DNA of 32,000 bases from Cereibacter sphaeroides 2.4.1 (GTDB lineage Bacteria; Pseudomonadota; Alphaproteobacteria; Rhodobacterales; Rhodobacteraceae). The notes beneath the pieces are model-generated. The model saw only the letters and a program-made list of their open reading frames with translations. It did no database searches and had not been told where the DNA came from. This document shows positions 597-22,460 of the stretch, one piece after another. Numbering within the stretch: position 1 is the first letter of the stretch; each line of letters starts with the position of its first letter. The position numbers were made by a program, and so were the translations under genes. Where the stretch lies: positions 1,920,001 to 1,952,000 of the forward strand of contig NC_007493.2 in NCBI RefSeq assembly GCF_000012905.2, read 5' to 3'.

Positions 597-671
597 TCCG
601 GCGTAGCTCAGCGGTAGAGCAGTTGACTGTTAATCAATTGGTCGTAGGTTCGATCCCTACCGCCGGAGCCA
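597..671 (+). tRNA. tRNA-Asn (anticodon GTT), CCA encoded
   Basis: Hand-folded cloverleaf. Acceptor TCCGGCG/CGCCGGA, D arm GCTC-AGCGGTA-GAGC, anticodon stem GTTGA/TCAAT with loop CTGTTAA, T arm GTAGG-TTCGATC-CCTAC, discriminator G plus CCA. Total 75 nt. Confidence 0.93.
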
Positions 672-733
672 AAAATCCCTGAGGGATCAGCTACATGAGA
701 GAAGCCCGCCACCGGCGGGCTTTCTTGTTTTGC
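623..733. repeat. Left attachment-site repeat (3' half of tRNA-Asn plus downstream terminator)
   Basis: Bases 623-733 align with 11600-11710 at an offset of 10977. Bases 623-674 are identical to 11600-11651 (52 bp). The remainder has about 7 mismatches, including a 3-nt swap in the terminator loop. Confidence 0.9.
702..730 (+). terminator. Rho-independent terminator downstream of tRNA-Asn
   Basis: AAGCCCGCC-acc-GGCGGGCTT stem-loop followed by TCTTGTTTT. Confidence 0.75.
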
Positions 734-737
734 TTCT

Positions 738-756
738 GGGGAACACCGGGGGAACA
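738..756 (+). repeat. Two direct copies of GGGGAACA (738-745, 749-756), candidate integrase arm-type sites at the left end
   Basis: The same 8-mer recurs twice in the same orientation at 11452-11459 and 11464-11471 near the other end of the element. Confidence 0.45.
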
Positions 757-841
757 GGGTAGGACTGGAACCCGCTGCCGTTGTTATCCATCTGACGGGC
801 GCCTAAGCTGCTCTCGAATCATCAGCAAGGGATCGATCCTG

Positions 842-1120
842 ATGGACGAGTTGGCCACGTTCGACGAAGCGGACTGGGAAGATCTGACTGCCGCCGATAA
901 GAAGGCGCTGAAGACGTTCTCGCGAGTCTCCATGTCCTACGAACCGCTTGCAAAGGCCCCTGGCGTCGGTCAATTGAGCATGGATGCCTTGGTTGCAAAG
1001 GGTCTGGCCGAGGAAGGGCAGCCGTGCCTGCATGGCAGAACCTTCAAGCTGTCCGATAAGGGATGGCTTGCGGTCGAGTGGATCAATGGCCGGAAGACGA
1101 GAGTCTACCCTCGAGCATAA
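842..1120 (+). CDS. Hypothetical protein (92 aa), the only plus-strand gene of the element
   Basis: The internal ATG at 842 (MDELATFDEADWEDL...) is preceded by AAGGGA. The longer 695 start would lie inside the att repeat and terminator. No family recognised. Confidence 0.45.
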   Translation: MDELATFDEADWEDLTAADKKALKTFSRVSMSYEPLAKAPGVGQLSMDALVAKGLAEEGQPCLHGRTFKLSDKGWLAVEWINGRKTRVYPRA

Positions 1121-1132
1121 TCCCGGAACGGG

Positions 1133-1762
1133 TCAGCCCTTCCGCATCCGCGCCTTCATTGCACATGATTTGGAGCAGGCCGTTTGCGCGGCCCGCTTCG
1201 GTCGGAATACCTGCCCGCACCCGATGCAGGTCCGATCCGGCACCGTGCGCTGCATCTGCCCCTTGCACGCCCTTGAACACGTCACCTGTTCCACCTGATG
1301 AGGCCGGAATGTGATGCCGCAGACGAGGCACACCTTTGGCCACCGGATGCGCTTGTCGTCGTCCCGGCACTTGAGGCCGCAATACACCTGCCCCTCGTTT
1401 GTAGGGAAGAACCGCTTGCCGCAGACCTTGCAGTTTCGCTTGTTCCGCTTGGCGCGCATGTCGTCACCAGAGCGGACCTTGCAGGCTTCGGAACAGTAGA
1501 TCCGGCCATAGGCGCCCATCTGCCCGCCGCAGAACAGGCATTTCTGCGACTTCCGCGCCTCGGCCCGTGCCGCCTGTTTCTCGGCCGTGTAGAACCGTTG
1601 CCGACACTTGCTATCGCAGAACTCGCGCCGGATCGTCACGCCGGCCGGGAGGGGCTTTCCGCACCAGTTGCAGCTCAGTCCAGACGGATTGCCATGCGAA
1701 TGGCCGTCTCCGCATCCGCATGGCGCAGAGCCGAAAGCCGGCTGTGATGGCTGCGCTTGCAT
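1133..1762 (-). CDS. Cysteine-rich protein with five tandem CxxC-(11-15 aa)-CxxxC zinc-ribbon modules (zf-FCS/TRASH-like); start uncertain
   Basis: Modules are CNWCGK..FCDSKC, CLFCGG..YCSEAC, CKVCGK..YCGLKC, CLVCGI..TCSRAC and CIGCGQ..ACSKSC. The first in-frame ATG (1762) overlaps the upstream gene by 88 nt and has no clear RBS. Confidence 0.55.
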   Translation of the reverse strand: MQAQPSQPAFGSAPCGCGDGHSHGNPSGLSCNWCGKPLPAGVTIRREFCDSKCRQRFYTAEKQAARAEARKSQKCLFCGGQMGAYGRIYCSEACKVRSGDDMRAKRNKRNCKVCGKRFFPTNEGQVYCGLKCRDDDKRIRWPKVCLVCGITFRPHQVEQVTCSRACKGQMQRTVPDRTCIGCGQVFRPKRAAQTACSKSCAMKARMRKG

Positions 1763-2181
1763 ATGCTGGAACAGAACTTCTGATGCCCCTCGGGAAGCGG
1801 CTTGTGGCACCGCTGGCACCTGGTGTGCTCGATCAGGGCTCCGCTCTCGATAGTCCATTCCGGCTGCCCCTCGTTCCAGCTCGGCCGCTTGACACCCGCC
1901 TTGCGCAGGGCCTCGGCCACCATCGCCGCGGCCATCTCGTCGGCCGCATCCCATTTCCATCCTTGCAGGCAGAGCCCCGAGCGGATCGCGTGACGGAACG
2001 GACCCTCGAGCGCGAACAGGGACGCGGCGTGGCCCTCGGCGAAAGCCGCGCGCATCCGGGCGGCCATGGCATCCGTGAGCCGTTCGGCGCGCTCGGTCGC
2101 GAGCTTTCCCCGCCTCGCGTCACGCTCGCGACGCTTGAGGGCGCGAGCCATCTCCAGAGCCGCGGGCGTGAGCATCAGCAT
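1675..2181 (-). CDS. Hypothetical protein with one C-terminal CxxC...FCSxxC zinc-ribbon module
   Basis: The ATG at 2181 follows the portal stop by 1 nt (TGACATG). The C-terminus carries CQRCHKPLPEGHQKFCSSIC, the same module type as the next gene. Confidence 0.55.
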   Translation of the reverse strand: MLMLTPAALEMARALKRRERDARRGKLATERAERLTDAMAARMRAAFAEGHAASLFALEGPFRHAIRSGLCLQGWKWDAADEMAAAMVAEALRKAGVKRPSWNEGQPEWTIESGALIEHTRCQRCHKPLPEGHQKFCSSICKRSHHSRLSALRHADAETAIRMAIRLD

Positions 2182-2182
2182 G

Positions 2183-3244
2183 TCAGTCGCTCCAGTCGAT
2201 GAATTGCAGGGCATCCTTCATGGCCGCGCCGTCGATCCCGGCCTCTTTCGCCTGCGCCATGGCTTGAACCATGGTCGCCAGGGCTCGAGCCTTGCCGCCG
2301 TGGTCGAAGGCCTGCATCGGCCGCACAACGTCGATAGCCACCGCGCCCCCGAGCTTGCGGGTCGCTTCCTCGGCCATCAGGCCGGCAATCGGCTGGAGCA
2401 CCAGTTGCGCCAGATGCCGCTGCGCCTCGCGAACCATCGGCCCCGTGGTCGCCTCGTTCATGAGGCCGGGCAGGACGCCATAGGCGCCCAGGATCGCCCC
2501 CTTGGCCTCGGTCAGCATCTTGTCGGCCAGCGTCCGCGCCAGATCCGGCGAGAGCTGGTCCGGCTTCTGGCCGAGGTTCGGGTTCATGCCGGCCGCGGTT
2601 GCCTGCGCAACACCCTCGATCACGAGAGCCGCGCCGCGCCGGCCGCGGAAGCCCTGCCGAAGCGCCTCCATGTCGTCGGCCGAGCCCTCGGGAACCGGCA
2701 CGATCTGGGAGCCCAGAGGCGCGTCCCGGAACACGTCGCGCAAGGCAGTCTCCAGCTCGCCCAGAAGCTCGGCCGAGAGCTGCGCCCGTTTCAGCGGGGC
2801 AGAGCCCGCCCAGGGCGTGACAGGATCGCAGCCGATGCGGAAATGCAGCACTTCGGGCGCCAGCACGGTTTCGCCTCGGCCGCCGCCCACTTCCGGGATC
2901 TGGCACCGATAGGCCCGCGGTTGCCCGTCGCGCGTGCTCAAGTCCCAATCGATCGCAGGCACCAGCCGGTCGCGGATCAGGAACAGGGCCTCGCCCCGGA
3001 GCGCCAGGGAGCGGGCGCAAAGGGCCATGGTCTGCCTGTCCAGCATGTCGGTGCCGGTCACGTCCGCAAGGGACAGGCCGGCTTCCCAGAGGCTGACAGC
3101 GGTTTGCACCGTCGCCGTCAGCTCGCCCATGCCCGCGGTGCCGGCGATAAAGCTTGCGCGGCTTGCCATGACAAGGGCGGTGTAGCCCGAGCCGGTCGCT
3201 CGGGTTTCCATGGGCTTGCGGCGGAAAAGGCTCATCAGGCCCAT
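2183..3244 (-). CDS. Phage portal protein, HK97 family
   Basis: 353 aa. The N-terminus MGLMSLFRRKP and overall sequence resemble HK97-type portals. The start sits in a TGACATG junction with the protease stop. Confidence 0.8.
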   Translation of the reverse strand: MGLMSLFRRKPMETRATGSGYTALVMASRASFIAGTAGMGELTATVQTAVSLWEAGLSLADVTGTDMLDRQTMALCARSLALRGEALFLIRDRLVPAIDWDLSTRDGQPRAYRCQIPEVGGGRGETVLAPEVLHFRIGCDPVTPWAGSAPLKRAQLSAELLGELETALRDVFRDAPLGSQIVPVPEGSADDMEALRQGFRGRRGAALVIEGVAQATAAGMNPNLGQKPDQLSPDLARTLADKMLTEAKGAILGAYGVLPGLMNEATTGPMVREAQRHLAQLVLQPIAGLMAEEATRKLGGAVAIDVVRPMQAFDHGGKARALATMVQAMAQAKEAGIDGAAMKDALQFIDWSD

Positions 3245-3245
3245 G

Positions 3246-3800
3246 TCAAAGCCTCCAGCGGTTGAGGTGGAAAGCCGCGCCGCGGAAGGGTTGCCGGTCC
3301 TGATGCGTTTCCCAGGATCGGGCCTCGATCTGCGCCTCGGGGTAGGCTGGCACTGTCACGGCCGACAGCTCGAACAGAGCCGCGCGGGTGATCGTGCGCA
3401 GCAGCCCTGCGCCGCGTTGCTCGATCCGCTCGCCCCCGGACTGGACGCGGAAGCCCGGCGACAGGCCCCGAACGAGGCCCGCCCGGTGAGCCGCAAGGAA
3501 GTCCTGCGCCCAGGAGGTGCCGCCCTCGATCCGCGCCTCGAGCACCAGCGCCGCGTCAGTGTCGGAAATGGTGAGGGAGCCCGCGGCCCGAGAGGCCAAC
3601 GGGCGGTTGTAGTCGTGGCCGGCGAGAAGGTGGATATCCTCGCCTGCCTCGATCCGGTCGGAGAAGGCCCGAGCGGCGATGACTTCTCGCCGTCCCGGTG
3701 CCAGCTCGGTTTCCGCGCCATAGGGGAACGTCGCCCGAAGGCGGGTTGCCCCGCCCTCGCTGCGCAGCTCCAGCGCGCCGAGAGACGCCCCCCAGAGCAT
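3246..3800 (-). CDS. HK97-family prohead maturation protease
   Basis: 184 aa. HLLAGHDYNRPLA ... LSPGFRV ... ELSAVTVPAYP resembles the HK97 prohead protease pattern. ATGA overlap with the capsid stop at 3800. Confidence 0.8.
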   Translation of the reverse strand: MLWGASLGALELRSEGGATRLRATFPYGAETELAPGRREVIAARAFSDRIEAGEDIHLLAGHDYNRPLASRAAGSLTISDTDAALVLEARIEGGTSWAQDFLAAHRAGLVRGLSPGFRVQSGGERIEQRGAGLLRTITRAALFELSAVTVPAYPEAQIEARSWETHQDRQPFRGAAFHLNRWRL

Positions 3801-5062
3801 CAGGCCACCTGCAGTCCGGTGACAAGCTCCAGCTGCGCGCCGCGCGCCACGGTAACGTCTGCCGTGGTGAGAGCAGTCAGCCGCACGCCGCCCGATTGCG
3901 CGTCCGAGTAGGGATCGCGGATCAGGTCGAAGGCACCCCAGAGGCCCACGAAAGCGGGCGCCACGCCGCCGGCCGAGGTCGCCAGAAGGGCCGAGGTCGC
4001 GAGCGGCGAGCCGCTCGGAGCGGCCAGCGCATTGGACGACATGACGATGCCGCCAAGGTTCTCCTTCAGCCGGTCGAACTCGAACTTGAAGCCCGAGTCA
4101 CTGACAAGGATGCCGTCCAGATAGCTCCACAGCTCGGGACGGATCAGCGCCTTGACTTCGCCCGGCCCGGCCGCCGCGTTGGCGGTCATGAAGCGCACCA
4201 CCGCCGCGCGGATCGCCGCCCAGGAGGCCGCGGCACCGACTGCCGTCGAGGTGATGCCATAGGTGGAGACGCCTGGGATCAGGCCCAGCGGTTGCCCGTT
4301 CGCGCCGGTCCCGCGGAAAATCGCCTTGTCCAGCTCGGCCGACATGGTGCCCGACATGTCGCGCCGGATCGCCGCCTCGAGCGCATCGCCCGATTGCAGC
4401 ATGGCCTTGCGGCTGATCCGCATATGAATGCCCAGGGTTTGCTCGGGCTTCAGGGCCTTGTCGGTCGTGGCATAGGCGGTCGGCCCGGCCACGTTTGCCA
4501 GCTCGCCGTCTGCCCAGCCGGCCGAGACGGCCGAGGTCGTCACCGGCCATTCGACGGCGCCCGAGCCGATGGTGATGAGCTGGACGCCCATTTGCGCCGC
4601 CACCGAAGCCGGGAACAGCCGGTCGATGATCGGGCGCGTCTGGAGCGGGTCGGGCGTGCCCGAGGCCACGGTTTCGCCGGCACGCTGTTCCAGCGCCATC
4701 AGGGGCACCGGGACGCCGCGATAGCCGCCAGCGTTGCGCAGCTCGGCCACCACCTCGGCCGTGCGGCCCGAGAGCGCGCGGCCCTCCTCCAGCGCCCGCA
4801 CCACCTGCCGCAGCTCATAGCCCGCCACCATTTCGGACCACTCCCGGCCGGAACGGGTTTCCAGATCGGCGCCGGCCTCGCGGCGCTCGGTGTCCTCGGC
4901 GATGAGGGCGGCACGATAGCGGGTCTCGTTCTGGCGATATTCGCCGTCGAGCTGTTCCATCTGCCGGGTTTCATCCTCGGTCGGGGTCGGCTTGCCGGCG
5001 AGGGTCGAGAGGGCTTGGCGGATCTCGGATTGCCGCCGCGCGATGGTCACGGAAGTGAGCAT
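3800..5062 (-). CDS. Major capsid protein, HK97 family (with N-terminal delta/scaffold-like coiled coil)
   Basis: Start chosen at ATG 5062 (MLTSVTIARRQSEIRQ...) because AAAGGAG lies 6 nt upstream. The charged helical N-terminus followed by a capsid fold-like body is typical of HK97 MCPs. Confidence 0.85.
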   Translation of the reverse strand: MLTSVTIARRQSEIRQALSTLAGKPTPTEDETRQMEQLDGEYRQNETRYRAALIAEDTERREAGADLETRSGREWSEMVAGYELRQVVRALEEGRALSGRTAEVVAELRNAGGYRGVPVPLMALEQRAGETVASGTPDPLQTRPIIDRLFPASVAAQMGVQLITIGSGAVEWPVTTSAVSAGWADGELANVAGPTAYATTDKALKPEQTLGIHMRISRKAMLQSGDALEAAIRRDMSGTMSAELDKAIFRGTGANGQPLGLIPGVSTYGITSTAVGAAASWAAIRAAVVRFMTANAAAGPGEVKALIRPELWSYLDGILVSDSGFKFEFDRLKENLGGIVMSSNALAAPSGSPLATSALLATSAGGVAPAFVGLWGAFDLIRDPYSDAQSGGVRLTALTTADVTVARGAQLELVTGLQVA

Positions 5063-5388
5063 GGGATCTCCTTTTGCTCGGTTGGCGCCTCCAGGTCGGA
5101 GACGGCTTGTCGCCACGCCACGCGGGCGGGATCGGGGTCAGGAATGCCGCACTCGCGCCGGGTGTGGCGCGTGTGGCAGGCAGGACAAAGGGAAGTCAGG
5201 TTGGACGGGTCGAACGACAGCTCGGGAGCCGTGCGAACGGGTTTCTTGTGGTGAACCTCCAGTCGGCCGCGCTTGCCGCACTCGGTGCAGGCCCAGCCGT
5301 CGCGCTCGAGGATCTGATGCCGCAGCACCTTCCAGCGCCGCGTCCGCAGCACCGGCCGAGAGAAGCGGGAGAAGCGGTCTAGAGCCAT
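5047..5388 (-). CDS. HNH endonuclease (packaging-associated)
   Basis: CTECGKRGRLEVHHKKPV...NLTSLCPACHTRH is a CxxC...HH...N...CxxCH HNH motif. It sits directly after TerL. Confidence 0.85.
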   Translation of the reverse strand: MALDRFSRFSRPVLRTRRWKVLRHQILERDGWACTECGKRGRLEVHHKKPVRTAPELSFDPSNLTSLCPACHTRHTRRECGIPDPDPARVAWRQAVSDLEAPTEQKEIPCSLP

Positions 5389-7052
5389 GCCGCCCTCGCT
5401 TTCCGCATCGGAGCGGCCTTCATGCGGGCGCCCTGCGCCACCGCCAGGACAGAGGCCGCGGCAGCGTCGATCCGCCCGAGGGAGCGGGCCTTGGCGAGCT
5501 TGTGGTTCCCGGCCGGATCCACCAGCGTGATTGCATCCGAGAAGGCGGAGCGCAGGAGCATGGAGGGCGCCACCTGCACCTCTCCGTCAAACAGCGCGCG
5601 CCGGAACCGCTCGATATCCTCACTGCCGTCCTTCCACCCGAAGCCGCGCCAGACAAAGGGCACACGGGCAAGGCCCGCGGCCTGCATCGCCTCGGTGAAC
5701 TCGGCATGGCGGAAGCGGTCGCCCACGACACAGGCCACCTCGGCCCCGTCCAGGTGCCGCACGATGGCCGCCAGCCATGGGCCAGGGGGCACCGTGGCAT
5801 CGCCCATCACGGTCAGCTCGCCGCGGGCCTCCATCTGCACATAGCGGTCGGAGACGCCATCAGCGGCGCCACGGTCGGCCAGGGAGGGAGACGCGGGGAA
5901 GGTGCCCAGGGCCTCCAGACGCCCCGTCTCGGGCCAGTAGAAGGCCGCCGCAGACATGGAGCGGGAGCCGCCCAGATCGACGCCCAGAACGCAGGGACCG
6001 GAGCGCGGGGGCAGCTCGTCGGGCGCCACCTCGGCCGAAAGCCACTCGTCCACCGTCACCAGAACGGACCGATCCTCGGTCGATACACGCTCGTTCCGGT
6101 TCAGGTTGCGGAAGCTGGAGAGGGCCGAACCACCCCGCGCAATCGCGCGCCGGGCCTGCGCCACCAGCCATTCTGGCGTGGAACCGATGCCCTCGGCCGC
6201 GCCCGGATTGGCCTCCAGAAGGGACGGCAGATCGTCTGCAGGAAGCCCGAAGGCCGGCCGATGCTCTTGGACATACGTCCCCGGCGGGGGCTCATCGAGC
6301 CACCGGGAGAAGGTGTTGGCGTCGTCGGGCGCGCTGGTGGAAATGATGAGGGCGCGGCCGTCGCGTTTGCCAAGGCCCGAGAGAATGGCGTTCTCGAGGT
6401 TGTCGCCCTTCTCCCGTTCCCACGCCGCGCGCTCGTCCATGAGGGCCAGCGTCGGAGCGCCGCCCAGGATCGACTTGCCATCGGCCGCGATGACGCGCGC
6501 CAGCCCGCCGCCGTTGCCCTCGAACTCCACCTCGAGCTTTGAGCCGCGCCGGATGGTGAAGCCTGCCCGATCCTCCTCCGGGAGGCCGTCGATATAGCCC
6601 ACGAGGAACTGAAATGCGGTCTTTGCCTGGTCCCGGTTCCGGGCGGCAAACAGGATCTCGCGCTTGGGTTGGGGCTTGGGATGCAGCGCGCCCACCAGCT
6701 CGGCCAGGGCGAGGCCGGCAGAGAGCGCGGTCTTGGCGTTGCCGCGTCCGATTGAAAGCACGCCCACCATCACGCCCGGCGCCATGGAGCCACGGACGAA
6801 CCGGCACTGAAATTCGGCCAGCTTGAGAGGCTTCCCGGCCTTCTTCCCCTCGGGCACTCGGAGCTGTTTCAGGAAGGCAATGGCCCTCGAGGCCGGGTCT
6901 TTCCCCCGGATTTTTTCCAGAAGCGAGAGAGGAACACCCCGACCCACGGTATCCGCCCCTCCCCGAGCCGGGGCATTGGGACCAGATCCGGGGGGCAGGC
7001 CATCCTTGCGCGGTCGGCCGCGCGGGCGCTTCACTCGCTCGTCGGCAGGCAT
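5379..7052 (-). CDS. terL: Terminase large subunit (Terminase_1-like)
   Basis: 557 aa. Basic N-terminus, then LKLAEFQCRFVRG and an ATPase region (VLSIGRGNAKT; LALMDE) followed by a nuclease half. Overlaps the gp6-like gene by 22 nt and HNH by 10 nt. Confidence 0.8.
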   Translation of the reverse strand: MPADERVKRPRGRPRKDGLPPGSGPNAPARGGADTVGRGVPLSLLEKIRGKDPASRAIAFLKQLRVPEGKKAGKPLKLAEFQCRFVRGSMAPGVMVGVLSIGRGNAKTALSAGLALAELVGALHPKPQPKREILFAARNRDQAKTAFQFLVGYIDGLPEEDRAGFTIRRGSKLEVEFEGNGGGLARVIAADGKSILGGAPTLALMDERAAWEREKGDNLENAILSGLGKRDGRALIISTSAPDDANTFSRWLDEPPPGTYVQEHRPAFGLPADDLPSLLEANPGAAEGIGSTPEWLVAQARRAIARGGSALSSFRNLNRNERVSTEDRSVLVTVDEWLSAEVAPDELPPRSGPCVLGVDLGGSRSMSAAAFYWPETGRLEALGTFPASPSLADRGAADGVSDRYVQMEARGELTVMGDATVPPGPWLAAIVRHLDGAEVACVVGDRFRHAEFTEAMQAAGLARVPFVWRGFGWKDGSEDIERFRRALFDGEVQVAPSMLLRSAFSDAITLVDPAGNHKLAKARSLGRIDAAAASVLAVAQGARMKAAPMRKARAAWL

Positions 7053-7336
7053 ACCCGCACCCCGCGGTATCGCGAGACGATGCGTGACGCGGCAAGGGAC
7101 AGGCCCATGGGCCTATCCTCTGTGCCACCGCGTGCGTCGAACAGCATGGCCGCCTGATCGCAGATCGCATAGGCCAGGTCGCTCGGCAGGGATGCACCCT
7201 CGGCCAGGGTGTAGCCTGCAGCCGCCAGCACGTCAGCCTGTGCAGCCGCAATCATCAGCTCCAGCGTTGCGTCCTCGTCGCTGAGGTCGATCCGCGCAAG
7301 CGCCTTAGTTGCAGAGAGAAGGTCGGGATTGCTCAT
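7031..7336 (-). CDS. gp6-like head-tail connector / DNA-packaging adaptor protein
   Basis: 101 aa. The N-terminal pattern KALARIDLSDEDATLELMIAAAQADVLAAAG is typical of the Phage_connect_1 (gp6-like) family. Confidence 0.65.
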   Translation of the reverse strand: MSNPDLLSATKALARIDLSDEDATLELMIAAAQADVLAAAGYTLAEGASLPSDLAYAICDQAAMLFDARGGTEDRPMGLSLAASRIVSRYRGVRVCLPTSE

Positions 7337-7397
7337 GCGCCAATACTAGATCAGCCGCAACTAACTGAGAATCCTAACACTTTATAACGCTGTCTAT

Positions 7398-7439
7398 CCG
7401 CACCGCAGTCAGGCCCTTAAGTATATGACTGCGGTGCGG
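7398..7439. repeat. Perfect 14-bp inverted repeat (CCGCACCGCAGTCA / TGACTGCGGTGCGG) with a 14-nt loop
   Basis: Read directly from the sequence. It lies between the RepA-like gene and the packaging operon. The CCGCAGTC/GACTGCGG 8-mer recurs at 7504-7511 and 7521-7528. Confidence 0.8.
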
Positions 7440-7498
7440 TGGTGGGGCTTACGCCCCCATACCACGCGCCCCACATGCATATTCCGCTCTCACCGCAC

Positions 7499-8836
7499 TC
7501 ATTCCGCAGTCGAGTGCGGAGACTGCGGATAGGCCGCGTTATGGTCCTCAGCCGGCATTCCCACCGTGATCGACGGAACGTCGCGCCCGTCCCGCAGCGA
7601 ACGGACGGTCTCCACCCGAAGCGCGCCGTTCCTGAGCCATGTGTTGATGAGGCTCGACACCCGACTGCGGGCGGCAATCTGGTCAGGGCCTTGCTGCGCC
7701 TTCGTCGTGCCGGGGGCGCCAACGTCCAAGCCCAGCGCGTCGGCTACGACATAGCCGGCCCAGTCCTTGCTGGTGGGCGCCTTGGCCGGCGGGGTCGCCC
7801 GCGCAGCAATGGCTTCCTGCACCCGCCGCAGGTCGTCCAGCTTGACGCCCTCGAACGCATCCGGCGGCGTCCATGCCGTGCAAACACCCACCTCGTCGCC
7901 CCGCGGATACTCGGGTGTAGCGTTGCCCAGAGGGACAGACTGCATCCGATACCAGGTGAACGCGCCCCCGCGGGCGGACATGTTGGTCTTGGCGCCGTCC
8001 ATCGCCCGGAAGATCCGCGCGGCTTCTGCGGGCGCAAGCCCCATCTTCTCGCCTTCCTCGAAGGTCATGGGTGCCAGCACGCGCCCCGCCCTGATACCGT
8101 CGCGAAAGGCAGAGCCGCCCCGGCCATCGTTGATGCTGTCTCCCGTCCCGGCCTTGTTCGCGTGATGGATCAACTCAATTGCGGCGTTGGTCTGGTTCGC
8201 CACGTCCCGCCATGCGTCGATCACGGCATTCATTGCGGTGTTGTCGTTCTCGGGAACCGTGTGGCAGGTGATGAACGGGTCGATAATCAAGGCGTCGATC
8301 CGGCGGGCTCGCATCTGCGCCACAAGCGCAGCCACCACGGGTTTTGCCACCTTCACGCCCTCACGGTCTGCCGCCGCGATCTTGATCGGCTGATCGCGCC
8401 CGCTATCCACATGCAGGCGCCCGCCGATCTCGTCGTCGCTGATGCCGTAATGGATGCAGGCCGCTTCAAGGCGCCGGCTGATTTCCTCAACCGGATCTTC
8501 GCCGCACCAATACCAGACGCGCAGGCCCTCGCGGGAATGCACCCAGCTATGCAACCGCTTCCGGCCGGTCGCCATGGCGAGCGCATCCACCAGCGCCAGC
8601 GATGATTTGCCGAGGCCGCCGGGGCTGATGGTGCCCGACAGCATCCGACGTTGCAGGTGGTAGCCGTAGAGCCACTGACGCGGGGGCGGAACGTTGCGGC
8701 GCCAGGTCGTCGGCGACAGCAGGCCGGATCGCGGCGGTTCTTCGTGGCCGGTTCCGGCGGCGTCGGACCCGAACTCGGCTCCGCATTCGGCCTCCACCTC
8801 CCTGCGCCAGGCGTCCGGGTCGTAGTGCCTCGTCAT
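7499..8836 (-). CDS. RecA-fold AAA_25 / RepA-like replication ATPase (helicase) of the element
   Basis: Walker A is GGLGKSS and Walker B-like is ALIIDPF, followed by IELIHHANK. It has a long C-terminal extension. ATGA overlap with the upstream small ORF. Confidence 0.75.
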   Translation of the reverse strand: MTRHYDPDAWRREVEAECGAEFGSDAAGTGHEEPPRSGLLSPTTWRRNVPPPRQWLYGYHLQRRMLSGTISPGGLGKSSLALVDALAMATGRKRLHSWVHSREGLRVWYWCGEDPVEEISRRLEAACIHYGISDDEIGGRLHVDSGRDQPIKIAAADREGVKVAKPVVAALVAQMRARRIDALIIDPFITCHTVPENDNTAMNAVIDAWRDVANQTNAAIELIHHANKAGTGDSINDGRGGSAFRDGIRAGRVLAPMTFEEGEKMGLAPAEAARIFRAMDGAKTNMSARGGAFTWYRMQSVPLGNATPEYPRGDEVGVCTAWTPPDAFEGVKLDDLRRVQEAIAARATPPAKAPTSKDWAGYVVADALGLDVGAPGTTKAQQGPDQIAARSRVSSLINTWLRNGALRVETVRSLRDGRDVPSITVGMPAEDHNAAYPQSPHSTAE

Positions 8837-9060
8837 GCCGCTGCCCTCCGCTGCCGGAGATAGGCGAGGAAAGCCGACTGGTGCTCAGGCTTCATCGCCT
8901 CGAACGCGGCCACGCAGACGGCCTTGCGGTATTCCTCGTGAGCGCCTTTGGCCCAGCGGCGCGCCTCAAGCATCGTCCCGCACCACGCGCTAGACGGAAC
9001 CTCCTGCCACGGCTTGCCGTAGAAGTCGCAGAGGGGGCAGAAGTGCGGACCCTGCATCAC
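8833..9060 (-). CDS. Hypothetical small protein (75 aa)
   Basis: In a translationally coupled chain: the previous stop is at 9057-9059 and there is an ATGA overlap with the repA-like start. CPLC motif near the N-terminus. Confidence 0.5.
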   Translation of the reverse strand: MMQGPHFCPLCDFYGKPWQEVPSSAWCGTMLEARRWAKGAHEEYRKAVCVAAFEAMKPEHQSAFLAYLRQRRAAA

Positions 9061-9269
9061 CGCGCCCCCTCAAAATAGCCGGTCAGCCCTTCGTCGGTCA
9101 GCGACTGCCGCACCTGATTTGCGTGCCCGGCCGAGAGGCAAAACACCGTCTCATCCGGTTCGCCAGGGCGATGCACGGAAATGACGCAGCGGCCGGCCAC
9201 GGTTTCGACGCGGAAGTGACCTTTGGCCTTGCGGGCCAGTAGCTCGTCTATGCTGTAAACGGCGAACAT
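9057..9269 (-). CDS. Hypothetical small protein (70 aa)
   Basis: The internal ATG at 9269 (MFAVYSIDELL...) forms an ATGA overlap with the alpA stop. The longer 9503 start would run through alpA in another frame. Confidence 0.5.
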   Translation of the reverse strand: MFAVYSIDELLARKAKGHFRVETVAGRCVISVHRPGEPDETVFCLSAGHANQVRQSLTDEGLTGYFEGAR

Positions 9270-9466
9270 CAGGCCACCTCGCGCGCTTCGGCCCGCGCGT
9301 CGAGCCACGCGAGCACCTCGGCCTCGCGCCAGTAGCGGCGGCGCTGAATGGTGACGGGTTTCGGGAATGCCATGGCGGGGTTGTTCAACCAGCGCCACAG
9401 GGACATGTCGCTGATGCCGCCACAGAGGGCGCGCACGGCGGCCGCGGAGATAAGCTTGCGTTCCAT
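9269..9466 (-). CDS. alpA: AlpA-family helix-turn-helix regulator / excisionase-like protein
   Basis: 65 aa. LCGGISDMSLWRWLNNPAMAFPKPVTIQRRRYWREAEVLAWL matches the AlpA (prophage CP4-57 regulatory) pattern. Confidence 0.8.
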   Translation of the reverse strand: MERKLISAAAVRALCGGISDMSLWRWLNNPAMAFPKPVTIQRRRYWREAEVLAWLDARAEAREVA

Positions 9467-9544
9467 TGGGGTGCCTCACGTTCGGTGACGTTAGGATTCC
9501 CAATGTTCAGATATTCCGCGGGACAGCGGCCTAGGTGTCCCAAT

Positions 9545-10201
9545 TTACTTGAAGCGGTCCCACTGTTTCTTGATGCCCTGCCAACCTCCCATTCCCTCCG
9601 CTTCGCATTGCCGTGCCGCATTCTCGACGCCAAGCTTGGGGACCAGTTCCGCCATCCGCGCGAACCGAAGGGTCCTCATCGGAATATGCCGCTGATTGGT
9701 CTTGTGCGCGGAGTTTAGCTGTCCTCCCGCAACCTTCTTTCCACGCGTCACGTGCTTAAGGTGGAGTCTGCGCGCGTTGAACCGACTGTGCGCCAGCCCC
9801 AGAAGCAGACTATGGGAAAAGACACTCTCCAGATTCCCGGCGGCGAGCGCTCGCTCCACCTCGATCACCTTCAAATAGAGGTCAGCAGCTTCATGTGGCA
9901 GCGTTAGCGGCTCGGCTTGCGCTCGTGTGAAAGCCCAGCCGGGAGAGATTGCCTTACCCACGGGCCTCTCGCCTTCTAGGCGTTTGCACCAAAAGCGCCC
10001 CTTGTGGAAGATCGCGGCACCCGGGTCTGGAAACCCATCCTGAACAATAATCTCGGCGAGCCTCTGTTTCAGCTCCGGCAGGTATTTGCTCGATGTAGGC
10101 CAATCTGCTGCAGCCTCTGCAAGCAGCGTCTCCCATTTCTCAGCAGAGACGACCTCTTTCTCCGTGCGGTGCATAGCATCAGACCAGACCTCCTTAGCCA
10201 T
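9545..10201 (-). CDS. Hypothetical protein (218 aa), accessory gene between int and alpA
   Basis: 8-nt overlap with the int stop. Visibly less G+C-rich than its neighbours. No recognisable motif. Confidence 0.55.
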   Translation of the reverse strand: MAKEVWSDAMHRTEKEVVSAEKWETLLAEAAADWPTSSKYLPELKQRLAEIIVQDGFPDPGAAIFHKGRFWCKRLEGERPVGKAISPGWAFTRAQAEPLTLPHEAADLYLKVIEVERALAAGNLESVFSHSLLLGLAHSRFNARRLHLKHVTRGKKVAGGQLNSAHKTNQRHIPMRTLRFARMAELVPKLGVENAARQCEAEGMGGWQGIKKQWDRFK

Positions 10202-11435
10202 GCTGGAGCCTCACCACGTTGTCCGCCTCCCCCTCCACCAGCGACAGAACGAACCGCGCCCAAGCCTCCAGCGCCTGCCGCTTCTCGTCGGCATAGTCGT
10301 GCCGTTGGTAGACCGCGACGATGCCGCCCCCTGTCCCGCTCACATGGTTCAGCACGGCCTCTGTCACCCGCACGGGGATGCCGAGCCGGGCCATGCCGGT
10401 CGCCGCCGTCCTGCGCAGATCATGGAAGGTCCAGCGCGGGATCTCGACGGGCTCGCCCCGCTCCTTCTGCGCGATGCCCACCATCGCCTCGGCCAGCACA
10501 GCGCGGGCCTTGAAAAAGCCGCTGACCGGTGTCCGGCCGGTCGTGGTGAAGATGAAGCGCACCCTGCCCTCCTCGTCCGTCACGCGCTCCACTTCGTCGA
10601 GCGCGGCGCGCACGGCCCCTGTCAGCGGCACATCGTGTGCCCGGCCGTTCTTTGTCCGGTCGGCTGTCAGGTGCCACAGGTCGCCGCGGATCTCGCTGTC
10701 CGTCATCTGCGCCACCTCGTTCAGCCGCTGGCCGGTGAGGAGCAGCACCTTGCCGAACGGCCCCCACGGGAAGCCCTCAGCCTCGCACGCCGTCCAGAAC
10801 CAGCGGATCTCGTCGTCGGTCAGCACGCGGGCACGGCTCGTCTCCTTACCGGCAGGCTTCACGCCGGCGGCCGGGCTCGTCGCCAGAATGTCCCGCTCGA
10901 CGCACCATCCGAAGAACTTGGCGAGATAGGCCCGGACGCGGTTCGCTGTGACGACGCGCCCGCTGTCCGCGATCCCGTCGAGAAGGTCGATCACGTCGCG
11001 CTTTCCGATCTGGTGAACGTCGCGCTCGCCCCACGCCGAAACGACGTGCCGCTCCAGCTCACGGCGCACGACCGCCCCGCTCTTGAGCTTGGACAGGTGC
11101 CGCTTGTCGAACTGGCCGATCAGGGTCTTGATCTTATCGCGATCGCCGTCGAGCTTCGGAGCCTTCGCGGCCTTGACCTCGGCCGCCGGATCGGTGCCGG
11201 CGCTCGCCGCGGCCAGGGTCTGCCGCGCCCGCTCGCGGGCGCCCGCGAGGGACAGCACCGGGAAGGCGCCGAGCGACATGCGCCGATGCACCCCGCCATG
11301 CCGATAACGGACCTGCCAGCCCTTCTTTCCGGTCGGCTGGACGATGAGATAGAGCCCGACGCAGAGGCTGTCCGGGATCTCCTGTCGCTTGTCTGTCGGC
11401 TTGATCTTCTCGACGCCCGCCGCACTCAACTTCAT
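10194..11435 (-). CDS. int: Tyrosine site-specific integrase (P4-like, N-terminal arm-binding DUF4102-type domain)
   Basis: Start taken at ATG 11435 (MKLSAAGVEKIKP...), with AGGAGG upstream. GLYLIVQPTGKKGWQVRYRHGG arm domain. C-terminal HDLRRT...LNH...VYQRHDY catalytic pattern. Confidence 0.9.
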   Translation of the reverse strand: MKLSAAGVEKIKPTDKRQEIPDSLCVGLYLIVQPTGKKGWQVRYRHGGVHRRMSLGAFPVLSLAGARERARQTLAAASAGTDPAAEVKAAKAPKLDGDRDKIKTLIGQFDKRHLSKLKSGAVVRRELERHVVSAWGERDVHQIGKRDVIDLLDGIADSGRVVTANRVRAYLAKFFGWCVERDILATSPAAGVKPAGKETSRARVLTDDEIRWFWTACEAEGFPWGPFGKVLLLTGQRLNEVAQMTDSEIRGDLWHLTADRTKNGRAHDVPLTGAVRAALDEVERVTDEEGRVRFIFTTTGRTPVSGFFKARAVLAEAMVGIAQKERGEPVEIPRWTFHDLRRTAATGMARLGIPVRVTEAVLNHVSGTGGGIVAVYQRHDYADEKRQALEAWARFVLSLVEGEADNVVRLQHG

Positions 11436-11451
11436 GTCAATTGGTCCTCCT

Positions 11452-11497
11452 GGGGAACAGTCTGGGGAACAGAGTTGCTTGTTTCCGTCGTTCCCCC
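11452..11497 (+). repeat. GGGGAACA x2 direct (11452-11459, 11464-11471) plus one imperfect inverted copy (GTTCCCCC 11490-11497)
   Basis: Lies between the int start and the right att repeat. Same motif and orientation as at 738-756. Confidence 0.45.
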
Positions 11498-11599
11498 ATG
11501 TTCTAACAGTCCCCAACATATAGCGACGAAATACCGTTTTTGCAACGAGTTGTGGCGTCCGATAGTTTTGACGCGTTTGGTTGTGTGACGCTGCCGGGA

Positions 11600-11710
11600 T
11601 TGACTGTTAATCAATTGGTCGTAGGTTCGATCCCTACCGCCGGAGCCAAAAGTCCCTGAGGGATCAGCTACATGAGAAAAGCCCGCCTCTGGCGGGCTTT
11701 CCTGTTTTCC
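11600..11710. repeat. Right attachment-site repeat: displaced 3' half of tRNA-Asn (11600-11648) plus a terminator copy
   Basis: See 623-733. It lacks the 5' half of the tRNA, so it is not a functional tRNA gene. Confidence 0.9.
11679..11707 (+). terminator. Second copy of the tRNA-Asn terminator (loop TCT instead of ACC)
   Basis: AAGCCCGCC-tct-GGCGGGCTT followed by TCCTGTTTT. Confidence 0.65.
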
Positions 11711-16091: not shown

Positions 16092-18629
16092 ATGAAGGCT
16101 TTCTTAAAGCTTCTCAGAATTTTTTTCTTCTTTGTTGTCTATTTCTGCATCGCCCTATTGATCGTTGCTTTTGGTCTTCAGAGTTGGCCGGTTGGCGGCC
16201 AGATGCTCTTTGCGTTTGGCGCCCCTGTTTTTCTGATCTGGTGGCAAGAGAGGAGGCGATCGCGAAAAGTCCCCACGAAAGCTATTGCCGAGGGAAGTTT
16301 GGAAACGCGAACCTCCCGACCTGAGCCGGTACCGCGCCAGAGTACCTACGAAGATCGTATTGAGCGCGAACGAACTCGCGAAGCCAATGCTTCCAAAGCA
16401 CCGGTTGGCGTTCAGGCCTATTCCTCACCAAAGCAGGACTACGCCGAGATCGTTCGCGCTGGAAGGTCTGCAGCGCCAGCTCTTGCGGCGGTCGTTGAAC
16501 GAAACCAGCCCGTGCGCGCTGTATCGAGCACATCGACCCAATCAACGAAAAGTGGGTGGGTCCCGTCTGGCGAAACAGCTAGCGTGGCCGGCCGCAACAT
16601 CGGCGGGATGGTCTATGTCGGCACGCCTCCCCTGCTGAACACCTACGGGTATCGTGACAAGTGCCGAGCCTATATCGATCCGTCCCTATCGGTCGCGCGC
16701 TCTGGATCCGACAAAGCTGGTGAGGGGATGCCCTATTGGCCAGGGTACTCGGACATCTCACCCCAGTGCAGGGCGACCTACCTTGATTGGCTGGCCAGCG
16801 GGCGAAACGATGCCTCCTACAACCCCGGCTACATGTTCCTGTACTTCTACGGGTTGGAGCGTCGCTTCTTCGTCGATCAGTCGAACGAAGATGTCAAGGA
16901 TATCGTCCAGGAGGTTCGGCGGCTGCAGTCGCTTTACCCTGACAACCACTCGGTCAGACGCTATTTGGGTGAGTTCCTTGACATTGCGATGCTTGCCGAA
17001 ACCGACCTCGACGCTATCGAGCCGATTCTTGAGAAGCAGGGCTGGGAACTTCCGTTCTCACTCAAATACGCAATTGGAGCTCGGATCGACAAAGGCGAGA
17101 ACCTGACGGCTGACTGGTTGCTGAGTTGGTTCATGTGCCATCCGGAAACAAATCTGAGAACTCCCGCGACTCGGTGCCGTGACGAGTTCATCGCTCTTTT
17201 CCGCATGCGGTTTGATCGGCGTTTTCCTGATGGGCTCAAGGTGACCAAACCCCGGAAGTCACTCACGGCATCCTATCGAGCCGCTTCCAGCGAGTTTCAG
17301 GGGTCCGCCAACCCAACCGTGGACGGCAAGCCTGTCCCGGATATTTCCGGTCTGCGCAAACCGGTCGAGATTGCCCAAGAGTTGGCTGACGAGGTGATGA
17401 ACGATCTCGACAAGCTCAGTCGCTTCTTGGGCCGAAATCCTGACGGCCGCGGAAGCGTGGAAGCGCATGCCTTGTTGCCCTCTGATCTATGGGAAACATT
17501 CCCGTCAGAGGAAATGGACCGGTTGAAATCATGGGCAAGCGATATCGTCGATCGGGACGGATTGGTGTCGCTTGAGGAGGTGATCGGACGTCTGGAGGGA
17601 GAAACGAACGAGAAGATCGGGAAGCGGCAGATGACAGGAGCGGCCGACGCGCTCGCGCGTCTCGGTTTCGGTCTGGCGCCCGACCCTCGGTTTGCGCTCC
17701 GATCGCCCAAGGCGGAAGAGCCTGTTGTGCTGTTCGACCTAAGCGAACCCATCGAAAGACTGGAGGAAGTTTCCGACAGCTATCGAAGCGCCTTGATGGA
17801 ATTGGCACTTGGGTCGTTCGTCGCACATGCGGATGGTCGGATCGCGGAGCCTGAGCGCAGAGCGCTGGAAGATCAAGTTTCTGCCGCGGCCCTCAGCGAT
17901 CAGGAACGCCGCAGGCTGCGCGCGAACCTTGAATGGTTCCTCGCCGTGCCACCGGACATGACGCTTCTGCGGCGCAAACTGAAGGAGGTTGGTCAAGATA
18001 GCCAGGCTGCCATCCGTGCAGCGCTGGTTGGTGCAGCAAATGCAGATGGAATTATTCACTCCGACGAAGTCGCGAGCATCGAGAAGGTCTACAAGGCTTT
18101 GGGCCTCGACCCTGCGCTTGCCTACTCGGACCTTCACGCCGGCGAAATTGTGGATGGTCCCCGCACTGTTCGTGCCTCGCAACCGGGCCGTGCAGGCGAA
18201 TCGATACCCGATCTTGAAAAAGCCAGCGGGCCTAAACTCGATGCTTCACGGATCGCGGCGATCCGTTCGGACACCGAGCGCGTCTCGTCTGTCCTTGGTC
18301 AGATTTTCGATGTCGAAGAGGAAGAGAGCGGTGTCTCCGCGTCTGCCAATCAAAGCCAGTTGGCAGGGCTTGACCCGAAACACAGCGCCCTTGTTCTCGA
18401 ATTGGTTAATCGGGAGCATTGGTCTGAAACCGAGTTCGAGAAGATATGCACCTCGAAGGGTTTGATGGCGTCGGGCGCTTTGGAAGCCGTGAATGAATGG
18501 GCCTTTGAGAACTACGATGAAGCGCTTCTCGAGGAATATGATGGATACGACGTGTCTCCGGACATTGCGGAGGCAGTAAAGGAAAAAATGAATGCGGAGG
18601 GCGGGGATGTCGAAGCTGAAACCACGTGA
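16092..18629 (+). CDS. sngA: Membrane-anchored TerB-N / TerB / TerB-C domain protein (Shango SngA-like)
   Basis: 845 aa. Two N-terminal hydrophobic helices. WVPSGETASVAGRNIGGMVYVG...YWPGYSDISPQCRATYLDWLASGR...GYMFLYFYGLERRFF (TerB-N-like). VAHADGRIAEPERRALE and ANADGIIHSDEVASIEKVY (TerB-like repeats). Acidic C-terminal module with LVNREHWSETEFEKIC...ALEAVNEWAFENYD (TerB-C-like). Confidence 0.8.
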   Translation: MKAFLKLLRIFFFFVVYFCIALLIVAFGLQSWPVGGQMLFAFGAPVFLIWWQERRRSRKVPTKAIAEGSLETRTSRPEPVPRQSTYEDRIERERTREANASKAPVGVQAYSSPKQDYAEIVRAGRSAAPALAAVVERNQPVRAVSSTSTQSTKSGWVPSGETASVAGRNIGGMVYVGTPPLLNTYGYRDKCRAYIDPSLSVARSGSDKAGEGMPYWPGYSDISPQCRATYLDWLASGRNDASYNPGYMFLYFYGLERRFFVDQSNEDVKDIVQEVRRLQSLYPDNHSVRRYLGEFLDIAMLAETDLDAIEPILEKQGWELPFSLKYAIGARIDKGENLTADWLLSWFMCHPETNLRTPATRCRDEFIALFRMRFDRRFPDGLKVTKPRKSLTASYRAASSEFQGSANPTVDGKPVPDISGLRKPVEIAQELADEVMNDLDKLSRFLGRNPDGRGSVEAHALLPSDLWETFPSEEMDRLKSWASDIVDRDGLVSLEEVIGRLEGETNEKIGKRQMTGAADALARLGFGLAPDPRFALRSPKAEEPVVLFDLSEPIERLEEVSDSYRSALMELALGSFVAHADGRIAEPERRALEDQVSAAALSDQERRRLRANLEWFLAVPPDMTLLRRKLKEVGQDSQAAIRAALVGAANADGIIHSDEVASIEKVYKALGLDPALAYSDLHAGEIVDGPRTVRASQPGRAGESIPDLEKASGPKLDASRIAAIRSDTERVSSVLGQIFDVEEEESGVSASANQSQLAGLDPKHSALVLELVNREHWSETEFEKICTSKGLMASGALEAVNEWAFENYDEALLEEYDGYDVSPDIAEAVKEKMNAEGGDVEAETT

Positions 18630-19914: not shown

Positions 19915-19919
19915 CGCCG

Positions 19920-22370: not shown

Positions 22371-22460
22371 TGGCGGAGCGAGAGGGATTCGAACCCTCGA
22401 GACGGTTCCCCGCCTACACACTTTCCAGGCGTGCGCCTTCGACCACTCGGCCACCGCTCC
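22371..22460 (-). tRNA. tRNA-Ser (anticodon GGA), CCA encoded
   Basis: The reverse complement reads GGAGCGGTGGCCGAGTGGTCGAAGGCGCACGCCTGGAAAGTGTGTAGGCGGGGAACCGTCTCGAGGGTTCGAATCCCTCTCGCTCCGCCA. Anticodon loop CTGGAAA, long variable arm typical of class II tRNA-Ser, T loop TTCGAAT. Confidence 0.92.

Follow-up and report, generated by a model that had tools for sequence, protein, structure and literature searches.

The 32,000-nucleotide window of the Cereibacter (Rhodobacter) sphaeroides 2.4.1 chromosome that was analysed here (NC_007493.2, positions 1,920,001 to 1,952,000; coordinates below count from the first letter of the window) contains an element of about 11 kb that sits in a tRNA-Asn gene and carries phage head and packaging genes with no tail genes beside them. 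The question raised by this locus was whether such an element is a phage satellite that builds its own capsids, the remnant of a prophage, or an element of another kind. As judged from its genes and boundaries, the stretch from about 623 to 11651 is probably a phage satellite that integrates, is intact and forms capsids. The sequence comparisons support the view that it works like a capsid-forming phage-inducible chromosomal island (cf-PICI), yet forms a separate lineage; membership of the described cf-PICI lineages was not supported.

The boundaries of the element were found to contain the following features.

597-671 (+): intact tRNA-Asn(GTT), found by ARAGORN and by Rfam RF00005 (72 bits); its 3' half, 623-671, is part of attL
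623-731 (+): attL copy of the repeat, with the perfect 52-bp core at 623-674 followed by the element-borne tRNA terminator hairpin at 701-723 (repeat search, terminator scan)
11600-11708 (+): attR, the displaced tRNA-Asn 3' half, with the perfect core at 11600-11651 followed by the original chromosomal terminator hairpin at 11678-11700 (repeat search, terminator scan)

The direct repeat (623-731 against 11600-11708) was 109 nt long with 95% identity, and it was found to run for 57 nt past the perfect core, through the terminator hairpin downstream of the tRNA. The two hairpin copies differed in the loop (CACC at attL, TCTG at attR) and in a few flanking bases and were otherwise the same. Since the repeat spans the tRNA 3' half as well as the terminator hairpin, the element replaces both with sequence that it carries itself, and what lies at 11652-11708 is the chromosome's original copy. 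The att cores were separated by about 11.0 kb, and the junction of the circular form (attP) is predicted to read ...GACGCTGCCGGGA/TTGACTG...GGAGCCAAAAA/TCCCTGAGGG.... The intact tRNA-Asn, its displaced 3' half at 11600 and the 52-bp core had been named by an earlier sequence-only reading of this DNA, and all three were borne out by ARAGORN, Rfam and the repeat search.

Between the att copies, 14 co-directional genes were found on the minus strand, most of their junctions overlapping by 1-22 nt, followed by one further open reading frame (ORF; 842-1120) on the plus strand, which the sequence-only reading had not named. The genes with a recognised family were found to be the following, in the order of transcription, with E-values in brackets.

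10194-11435 (-): P4-type tyrosine integrase, 413 aa, open frame to 11519 (Arm-DNA-bind_3 1e-18; Phage_int_M and Phage_integrase 6e-15)
9269-9466 (-): AlpA-like or excisionase-type helix-turn-helix protein, 65 aa (PF05930 4.5e-3; phrog_66 'excisionase and transcriptional regulator' 2.6e-5)
7499-8836 (-): AAA_25 (RepA / DnaB-like) ATPase, 445 aa (PF13481 1.9e-35; phrog_906, helicase part of polymerase/primase, 8e-33)
7031-7336 (-): head-tail adaptor of the gp6/Ad1 type, 101 aa (PF05135 6e-9; phrog_40 2e-11)
5379-7052 (-): large terminase subunit TerL, 557 aa from the ATG at 7052, 522 aa in the form given by the gene caller (PF03354 and PF20441; phrog_9 1e-53)
5047-5388 (-): HNH endonuclease, 113 aa (PF01844 1.1e-10), of the type that is a packaging cofactor of HK97-type terminases
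3800-5062 (-): HK97-fold major capsid protein, 420 aa (PF05065 3.5e-12), 100% identical to a protein of R. sphaeroides named 'phage major capsid protein' by NCBI
3246-3800 (-): prohead serine protease S78, 184 aa (PF04586 7e-22)
2183-3244 (-): portal protein, 353 aa (PF04860 3.5e-10), conserved in 157 related loci

The gene set claimed by the sequence-only reading was present throughout with Pfam or PHROG backing, the alpA match being weak, and all frames of the element were found to be intact with no pseudogenes. Relatives with the same type of integrase (51-79% identity) were likewise found in tRNA-Asn, and the AAA_25 ATPase is presumed to be a replication helicase. The capsid protein contained an N-terminal extension of about 120-150 aa outside the capsid profile, helical-looking by eye, which is presumed to be a scaffolding delta domain. 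The N-terminal extension of TerL was conserved in relatives, and in the window and in five relatives it was found to carry the AT-hook-like sequence KRPRGRPRK.

No ORF of the element was found to match a tail, baseplate, holin, endolysin, repressor or small terminase (TerS) protein when Pfam, PHROGs and PADLOC were searched, and the unassigned proteins, inspected by sequence, showed no hydrophobic segment of the holin kind. About 800 aa of coding sequence in the element were left without assignment, which is too small for a tail. The unassigned or partly assigned genes were found to be the following.

9545-10201 (-): rare accessory protein, 218 aa, all-helical (AlphaFold2 model, mean predicted local distance difference test, pLDDT, 72)
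8833-9057 and 9057-9269 (-): two small ORFs of 74 and 70 aa (gene calls; tblastn)
1675-2181 (-): 168-aa protein with a four-helix N-terminal domain followed by one C-terminal zinc ribbon (AlphaFold2 model, pLDDT 83)
1133-1762 (-): five-zinc-ribbon protein, about 209 aa, tandem CxxC...CxxxC, DUF2116 / NinG-N-like (Pfam DUF2116 7.7e-7; phrog_1333 5e-10)

AlphaFold2 models of the 168-aa and 218-aa proteins were built from homologue alignments and were then searched with Foldseek at a cut-off of E<0.001. The 168-aa model was found to have no match in PDB or BFVD and the 218-aa model none in PDB, and neither model gave a TerS-like match. The absence of tail, baseplate, lysis, repressor and TerS genes, as held by the sequence-only reading, was in this way upheld by the three family searches and, for the two largest unknowns, by the fold search. 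The 168-aa protein had 91 homologues, all without a name, whereas the 218-aa protein had just 11 among 5.8 billion proteins and no PADLOC match. The 70- and 74-aa ORFs had no family match in Pfam or PHROGs; homologues of the 74-aa protein were found to adjoin packaging genes in other subfamilies. A defence system within the element was also considered, and PADLOC found none on the unassigned ORFs.

Six zinc ribbons of one type (CxxC-x12-16-C-x3-C, FCS/TRASH-like) were found over the two overlapping genes at 1133-2181, one in the first and five in the second, and this overlapping two-gene arrangement was kept in four relatives (L020, L022, L040 and L080). The open frame of the 1133-1762 gene reached 1960, overlapping the end of the upstream gene, and the gene was skipped by one gene caller. 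A DNA-binding role of the zinc-ribbon proteins in packaging would be a guess.

The element was found to belong to a large family. Among the scored candidates, homologues of its capsid protein numbered more than 2,800, and the best 120 of these were 74-88% identical and came from Rhodobacterales, Sphingomonadales and Hyphomicrobiales. Related loci numbered 191 among 185,579 species genomes (one genome per species), followed by 460 in IMG/VR, none of them on a contig of phage size, and the hosts of the family were found in Rhodobacterales, Sphingomonadales, Hyphomicrobiales and Maricaulales. The order TerL-HNH-capsid-protease-portal was kept in all of the approximately 170 related loci that were fetched; some of the relatives contained an extra gene of about 180 aa ahead of the portal gene, or a head-closure gene beside the HNH gene, and the half with integrase, regulation and replication genes was found to be a mosaic.

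About 36 loci contained exact flanking direct repeats of 18-58 bp, spaced 9.3-11.7 kb apart, and most of these repeats were identical to the 3' terminus of a neighbouring tRNA gene. The tRNA genes occupied were at least 10 in number and included those for Asn, Thr, Cys, Lys, Leu, Ala, Glu, Phe, Ser, Arg and Val. Each of the 25 bounded elements whose genes were checked individually contained an integrase and the five core genes, with no unexplained ORF above 420 aa, and the size of the element was nearly constant in the family at about 10.4 kb. Four relatives of about 10.1 kb (L003, L007, L012 and L036) contained terminal overlaps of 55-141 nt, which is the signature of a circular molecule; they came from the isolates Salipiger thiooxidans and Gemmobacter serpentinus HB-1 and from two metagenome-assembled genomes (MAGs), and the circular contig of Gemmobacter serpentinus HB-1 (NZ_WCHR01000035) was labelled cov_941, that is, 941x coverage. 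The many tRNA sites, the constant size and the circles therefore point to an element that moves and whose genome length is tightly constrained, and not to a fixed, decayed prophage. The sequence-only reading had named a fixed, syntenic, decayed remnant in all relatives as one of the findings that would overturn it, and this was ruled out by the mobile pattern of the family; its observation of intact frames and its view that the element is no decayed prophage held up. All that a tail-less, capsid-forming satellite would predict at the level of sequence was borne out.

In some relatives (L024, L049, L062 and L063) the flanking repeats were 19-28 bp long, were not tRNA ends and contained the core GGGGTGTCCCAC; these relatives may integrate at sites of another kind.

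An ordinary HK97-like prophage in decay, with its tail and lysis modules gone, was considered as another origin. The head and packaging genes were all of the HK97 type and TerL was 29% identical to terminases of the HK022/HK97 group, as such a remnant would have it. The same tail-less gene set of about 10.4 kb was, however, found in well over a hundred loci, at ten or more tRNA sites and also as circles; no pseudogenes were present; and neither a close capsid or portal in 50,697 phage records nor a related capsid gene on any phage-sized contig among the 460 IMG/VR loci was found. This origin is already contradicted by the evidence and is regarded as extremely improbable.

The distance from known phages was found to be large for each of the proteins compared. 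Among the 50,697 phage genomes, the best capsid match was 32% identical over 36% of the protein, the portal had no match, and TerL was at most 30% identical to terminases of the HK022/HK97 group and to those of some 12.9-kb Ralstonia records. When 1.84 billion representatives were searched, the members of the capsid family clustered closely, matching over their full length with identities of 43% or more, apart from a halo of about 30% identity. A PDB sequence search of capsid, portal and adaptor gave nothing but a weak capsid match to 8GTA, and in profile searches with capsid and portal 8GTA was again the one solved structure of this kind to be matched. A sequence relationship to any other solved capsid or portal was not detectable, the E. 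coli cf-PICI capsid included if it has been deposited, which suggests that the element is not closely related to EcCIEDL933.

No integrase or other recombinase was called in the circular relatives (L003, L007, L012 and L036) or in L167-L169, and the integrase-less circles may be capsid-encoding, plasmid-like members of the family. Such circles of about 10.1 kb, occurring in isolates and MAGs, together with the lack of a known helper, would fit a self-sufficient tail-less element that spreads, for instance, by capsid release and uptake, or a plasmid whose capsid has another role. This reading is considered very unlikely. The adaptor is a core gene of the family (86 loci) and a stopper is present in relatives, both of which serve solely the docking of a tail; candidates for receptor binding or membrane fusion were not found; and HK97-type capsids are not known to deliver DNA independently of a tail.

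The neck proteins were then the source of evidence on the tail that a capsid-forming satellite of this family would use. The adaptor profile matched one of 177,635 PDB sequences, namely the adaptor Rcc01688 of the gene transfer agent (GTA) RcGTA (E=8.4e-6), and the head-closure protein of the relatives matched 2KZ4 and the RcGTA stopper Rcc01689 (E=9e-5). From these matches, fitting tails should therefore be of the RcGTA/HK97-like siphovirus type. The same two matches would agree with capsids that receive their tails from an RcGTA-type GTA of the host itself, the satellite being a parasite of a domesticated GTA. Rhodobacterales, Sphingomonadales, Hyphomicrobiales and Maricaulales carry RcGTA-like clusters, and these are the orders in which the hosts of the family were found; GTAs are, however, nearly universal in these orders, so co-occurrence would be uninformative. 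RcGTA is also the sole siphovirus-type neck of alphaproteobacterial origin in PDB, and the matches may reflect an ancestry within the host clade that is shared with ordinary Rhodobacter phages. The capsid and portal showed no similarity to RcGTA proteins and the window holds no GTA genes. The use of GTA tails is for these reasons held to be improbable.

The 5' end of terL was found to contain a candidate packaging site.

6972-6984 (-): TGGTCCCAATGCC motif inside the 5' end of TerL, exact and in single copy in the window

Upstream of the ATPase domain of TerL, many of the relatives contained the residues 'GPNA', and the DNA at this place was an invariant TGGTCCCAATG(CC), with no synonymous variation and with nearly random flanks. 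The 11-mer TGGTCCCAATG was exact in 91 of the 124 distinct upstream segments and lay within two mismatches in 21 more (112/124); the variant TGGTGCCAATG made up most of the near-matches and marks a subgroup. The modal position of the motif over the 124 distinct segments was -110 nt from a fixed TerL residue, and in a few loci the motif was found outside the TerL frame. Most simply, TGGTCCCAATG is a candidate cos or terminase recognition site, as would be expected of a site that acts in cis where the terminase gene begins, given that packaging in this family is HNH-dependent and of the HK97 type. A structural element was rejected since folding was no better than that of shuffles (z=-0.49), and a sigma-54 promoter was rejected on inspection since the GG-to-GC spacing was wrong. 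That the AT-hook KRPRGRPRK of TerL stands in for the DNA binding of TerS is speculation.

A fuller proposal would join several of these points, namely a distinct and very widespread alphaproteobacterial lineage of capsid-forming satellites that is completed by RcGTA-type tails of the host rather than, or besides, phage tails, that packages from a family-universal cos TGGTCCCAATG without a conventional TerS, and of which some members are non-integrating, capsid-encoding plasmids. As a whole, this combination is given a low probability.

Several results weigh against an intact capsid-forming satellite. TerS was found neither in this element nor in the gene-called relatives (Pfam, and PHROGs for the ORFs of the element, with the fold search covering the 168- and 218-aa proteins). 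The head-closure gene (PF05521) was absent, and a hidden Markov model built from the genes of 41 relatives found nothing in the window with filters off at E<=100; these 41 relatives, the closest ones L004 and L005 among them, do have the gene. The AlpA match to PF05930 fell under the Pfam gathering cut-off at E=4.5e-3, and the AAA_25 replication protein contained no primase domain in Pfam or PHROGs. The contig ends of relatives did not fall at the TGGTCCCAATG motif. Neither an empty attB nor the attP junction was retrieved for the 2.4.1 element, and 24 of the 24 contigs read with the identical neighbouring chemoreceptor gene carried the element.

The missing head-closure gene, present in the two closest relatives, may mean that this copy needs more helper functions or is impaired. 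In the latter case the element would no longer be transmissible in 2.4.1, the frames being intact and the heads unfinishable without a head-closure gene and TerS, and it would persist as a genomic island. In L004 and L005, with integrases 78-79% identical and the same tRNA-Asn site, a PF05521-type gene was found between terL and hnh, whereas terL and hnh overlap here; the presence of the element in all contigs read with the identical neighbouring gene and the split integrase of one deposited 2.4.1-type chromosome also fit this reading. Approximately 130 of 174 relatives (partial contigs included), many of them bounded elements in various tRNA genes, were nevertheless without the head-closure gene, which is not essential to the family because most relatives are without it. 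In addition, every ORF was intact and translationally coupled, the att cores were identical over 52 bp and the cos-like motif was exact. A loss of transmission in 2.4.1 is accordingly thought unlikely, and an intact capsid-forming satellite is still preferred.

The same locus was found to be present in the deposited R. sphaeroides chromosomes CP015210 and CP047037. In CP015210.1 (L086, 6656-7898), which is a chromosome of the 2.4.1 type, the integrase was split into ORFs of 338 aa and 95 aa, either by a sequencing error or by an inactivating frameshift in that stock. The scan of species-representative genomes gave no 100%-identical match, though the query patterns fit the capsid of the window exactly; the representative Cereibacter sphaeroides genome may thus be without the element, which would point to presence/absence variation within the species.

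Among the closest known systems are the cf-PICIs, such as EcCIEDL933 of E. coli (Alqurainy et al., bioRxiv 10.1101/2022.09.08.507074; He et al., bioRxiv 10.1101/2025.02.11.637232). Shared with them are an island of 10-18 kb (about 11.0 kb here) with an integrase, a replication gene and, by a weak match here, an alpA-type regulator, followed by HK97-type genes of the island itself for capsid, protease, portal, adaptor, HNH and TerL, the absence of genes for tail and lysis, a capsid lineage that stands apart from those of phages, and the odd capsid-protease-portal order, which is that of proteobacterial cf-PICIs (bioRxiv 10.1101/2022.09.08.507074). The differences are that neither TerS nor a connector (head-closure) gene was found here, that terL-hnh stand ahead of the capsid genes here and after them in cf-PICIs, that the genome is smaller (about 10.4-11 kb, where the T=4 EcCIEDL933 has 15.5 kb), and that the hosts belong to the class Alphaproteobacteria. 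Profiles of capsid and portal, moreover, match no solved capsid or portal but 8GTA. Proteobacterial cf-PICIs have been delimited by packaging-module proteins 50-90% similar to those of EcCIEDL933; cf-PICIs are also defined by induction through a helper phage, by small capsids that contain island DNA and nothing else, and by the use of the helper's tails. The assignment to the cf-PICI type made by the sequence-only reading stood for the integrase, the replication gene and the head module without tails; TerS and the head-closure gene, two further components that define cf-PICIs, were not found, and the alpA part was weak.

With P4-like satellites the element shares an integrative form of about 11 kb in a tRNA gene, a P4-type integrase (Arm-DNA-bind_3), a helicase-type replication protein and a presumed dependence on a helper for missing virion parts, whereas P4 has no capsid, portal, protease or terminase of its own, remodels the P2 capsid with Sid/Psu and uses the cos and terminase of the helper. 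RcGTA is alike in its alphaproteobacterial hosts, HK97-type head genes and small head, and its g6 and g7 are homologous to the adaptor here and to the stopper of the relatives, whereas a GTA cluster has tail genes, is without integrase, att sites or a replication gene, is inherited vertically and packages random host DNA; the element here is flanked by att sites, mobile and equipped with a conserved candidate packaging site. The element was therefore not taken for an RcGTA-like GTA, as an integrase, att repeats and a replication gene are present, tail genes are absent and relatives sit at many tRNA sites. An intact temperate HK97-like prophage, with tail, lysis and immunity genes in about 35-45 kb, was likewise rejected for 11 kb without such genes. 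MulchRoom and MiniFlayer of Streptomyces (PMC10690885) are similarly small with head and packaging genes and no tail, but they are without replication genes, have virulent helpers and another gene order, and showed no detectable capsid or portal similarity.

The Ralstonia 'phage' records of about 12.9 kb (ON170149) aligned with TerL over a greater length than any others in the phage collection (94% of the protein, at 29% identity), and were rejected as members of the same family owing to a different architecture and no detectable capsid or portal similarity. In ON170149.1 ('Ralstonia phage YO088_5', 12,905 bp, L174; unannotated) TerL and the protease were matched, and further ORFs had the sizes of capsid, portal, primase and integrase genes and satellite-like positions. 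This record is probably a capsid-forming satellite deposited as a phage, outside the family described here. No account of the family in Rhodobacter or Alphaproteobacteria was found in the literature, the text of the SatelliteFinder survey being without mention of Alphaproteobacteria; virion-encapsidated integrative mobile elements (VEIMEs) are without capsid genes. An alphaproteobacterial family of such elements has apparently not been described.

A life cycle can be proposed in which excision, replication and procapsid assembly follow from the gene content, and packaging, closure and tailing follow by analogy with HK97 and cf-PICIs. The P4-type tyrosine integrase and the AlpA-like protein would free the element from the 3' half of tRNA-Asn, followed by copying of the circle with the AAA_25 helicase. 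The portal and the capsid protein, with the delta domain as scaffold, and the S78 protease would build a small head, for which the genome size suggests a T=3 or T=4 geometry; if the 39.7 kb of HK97 are scaled by T^1.5, a T=3 head would have room for about 11 kb and a T=4 head for about 17 kb. TerL and HNH would then cut unit-length DNA at the cos-like TGGTCCCAATG at the 5' end of terL, where the AT-hook N-terminus of TerL or some small protein of the element may substitute for TerS. The gp6-type adaptor would seal the portal, and the tail and lysis functions would come from outside, the tail donor being a siphophage, resident in the same cell or infecting it, whose neck is RcGTA/HK97-like.

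Work on capsid-forming satellites has until now dealt with enterobacteria and Firmicutes. The present finding places a predicted intact one in the genetically tractable model R. sphaeroides 2.4.1, where it stands for hundreds of elements of nearly identical size in marine, freshwater and soil Alphaproteobacteria. If active, these would be an unrecognised route of gene transfer in Rhodobacterales, Sphingomonadales and Hyphomicrobiales beside GTAs. Testable questions are how an HK97-type terminase acts without a recognisable TerS, whether TGGTCCCAATG is the cos, and whether the tails of phages or of GTAs are hijacked. For databases, a warning follows that 'viral' IMG/VR contigs of about 10 kb from these hosts are satellites and not phage fragments.

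Two further features of the element were found outside the main gene series.

7337-7498 (-): largest intergenic gap, between the helicase and adaptor genes
842-1120 (+): 92-aa ORF that adjoins attL and faces int across attP in the circular form

The gap contained a perfect 14-bp inverted repeat at 7426-7439 and 7398-7411 (CCGCACCGCAGTCA ... TGACTGCGGTGCGG, 14-nt loop) followed by an AT-rich stretch. It is likely the boundary of the replication and head/packaging operons, and the inverted repeat at 7398-7439 could be a terminator, an operator or an origin. The 92-aa ORF was called as a gene in an ENA assembly with an identical element and had a 44% tblastn match in L024; no significant match was found in Pfam, PHROGs or PADLOC.

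Beyond the element, the window was found to contain three genes that match the Shango anti-phage system, on the plus strand at 16092-22091, namely SngA (TerB_N/TerB/TerB_C, E=4e-106), followed by SngB (BrxC/D-like ATPase, 3.5e-176) and SngC (DEAD helicase, 5e-273). The GC content of the stretch around these genes is low, at 0.54-0.60, whereas most of the sequence on either side has about 0.70; the stretch ends at tRNA-Ser(GGA), 22371-22460 on the minus strand, and the Shango region is probably a second genomic island.

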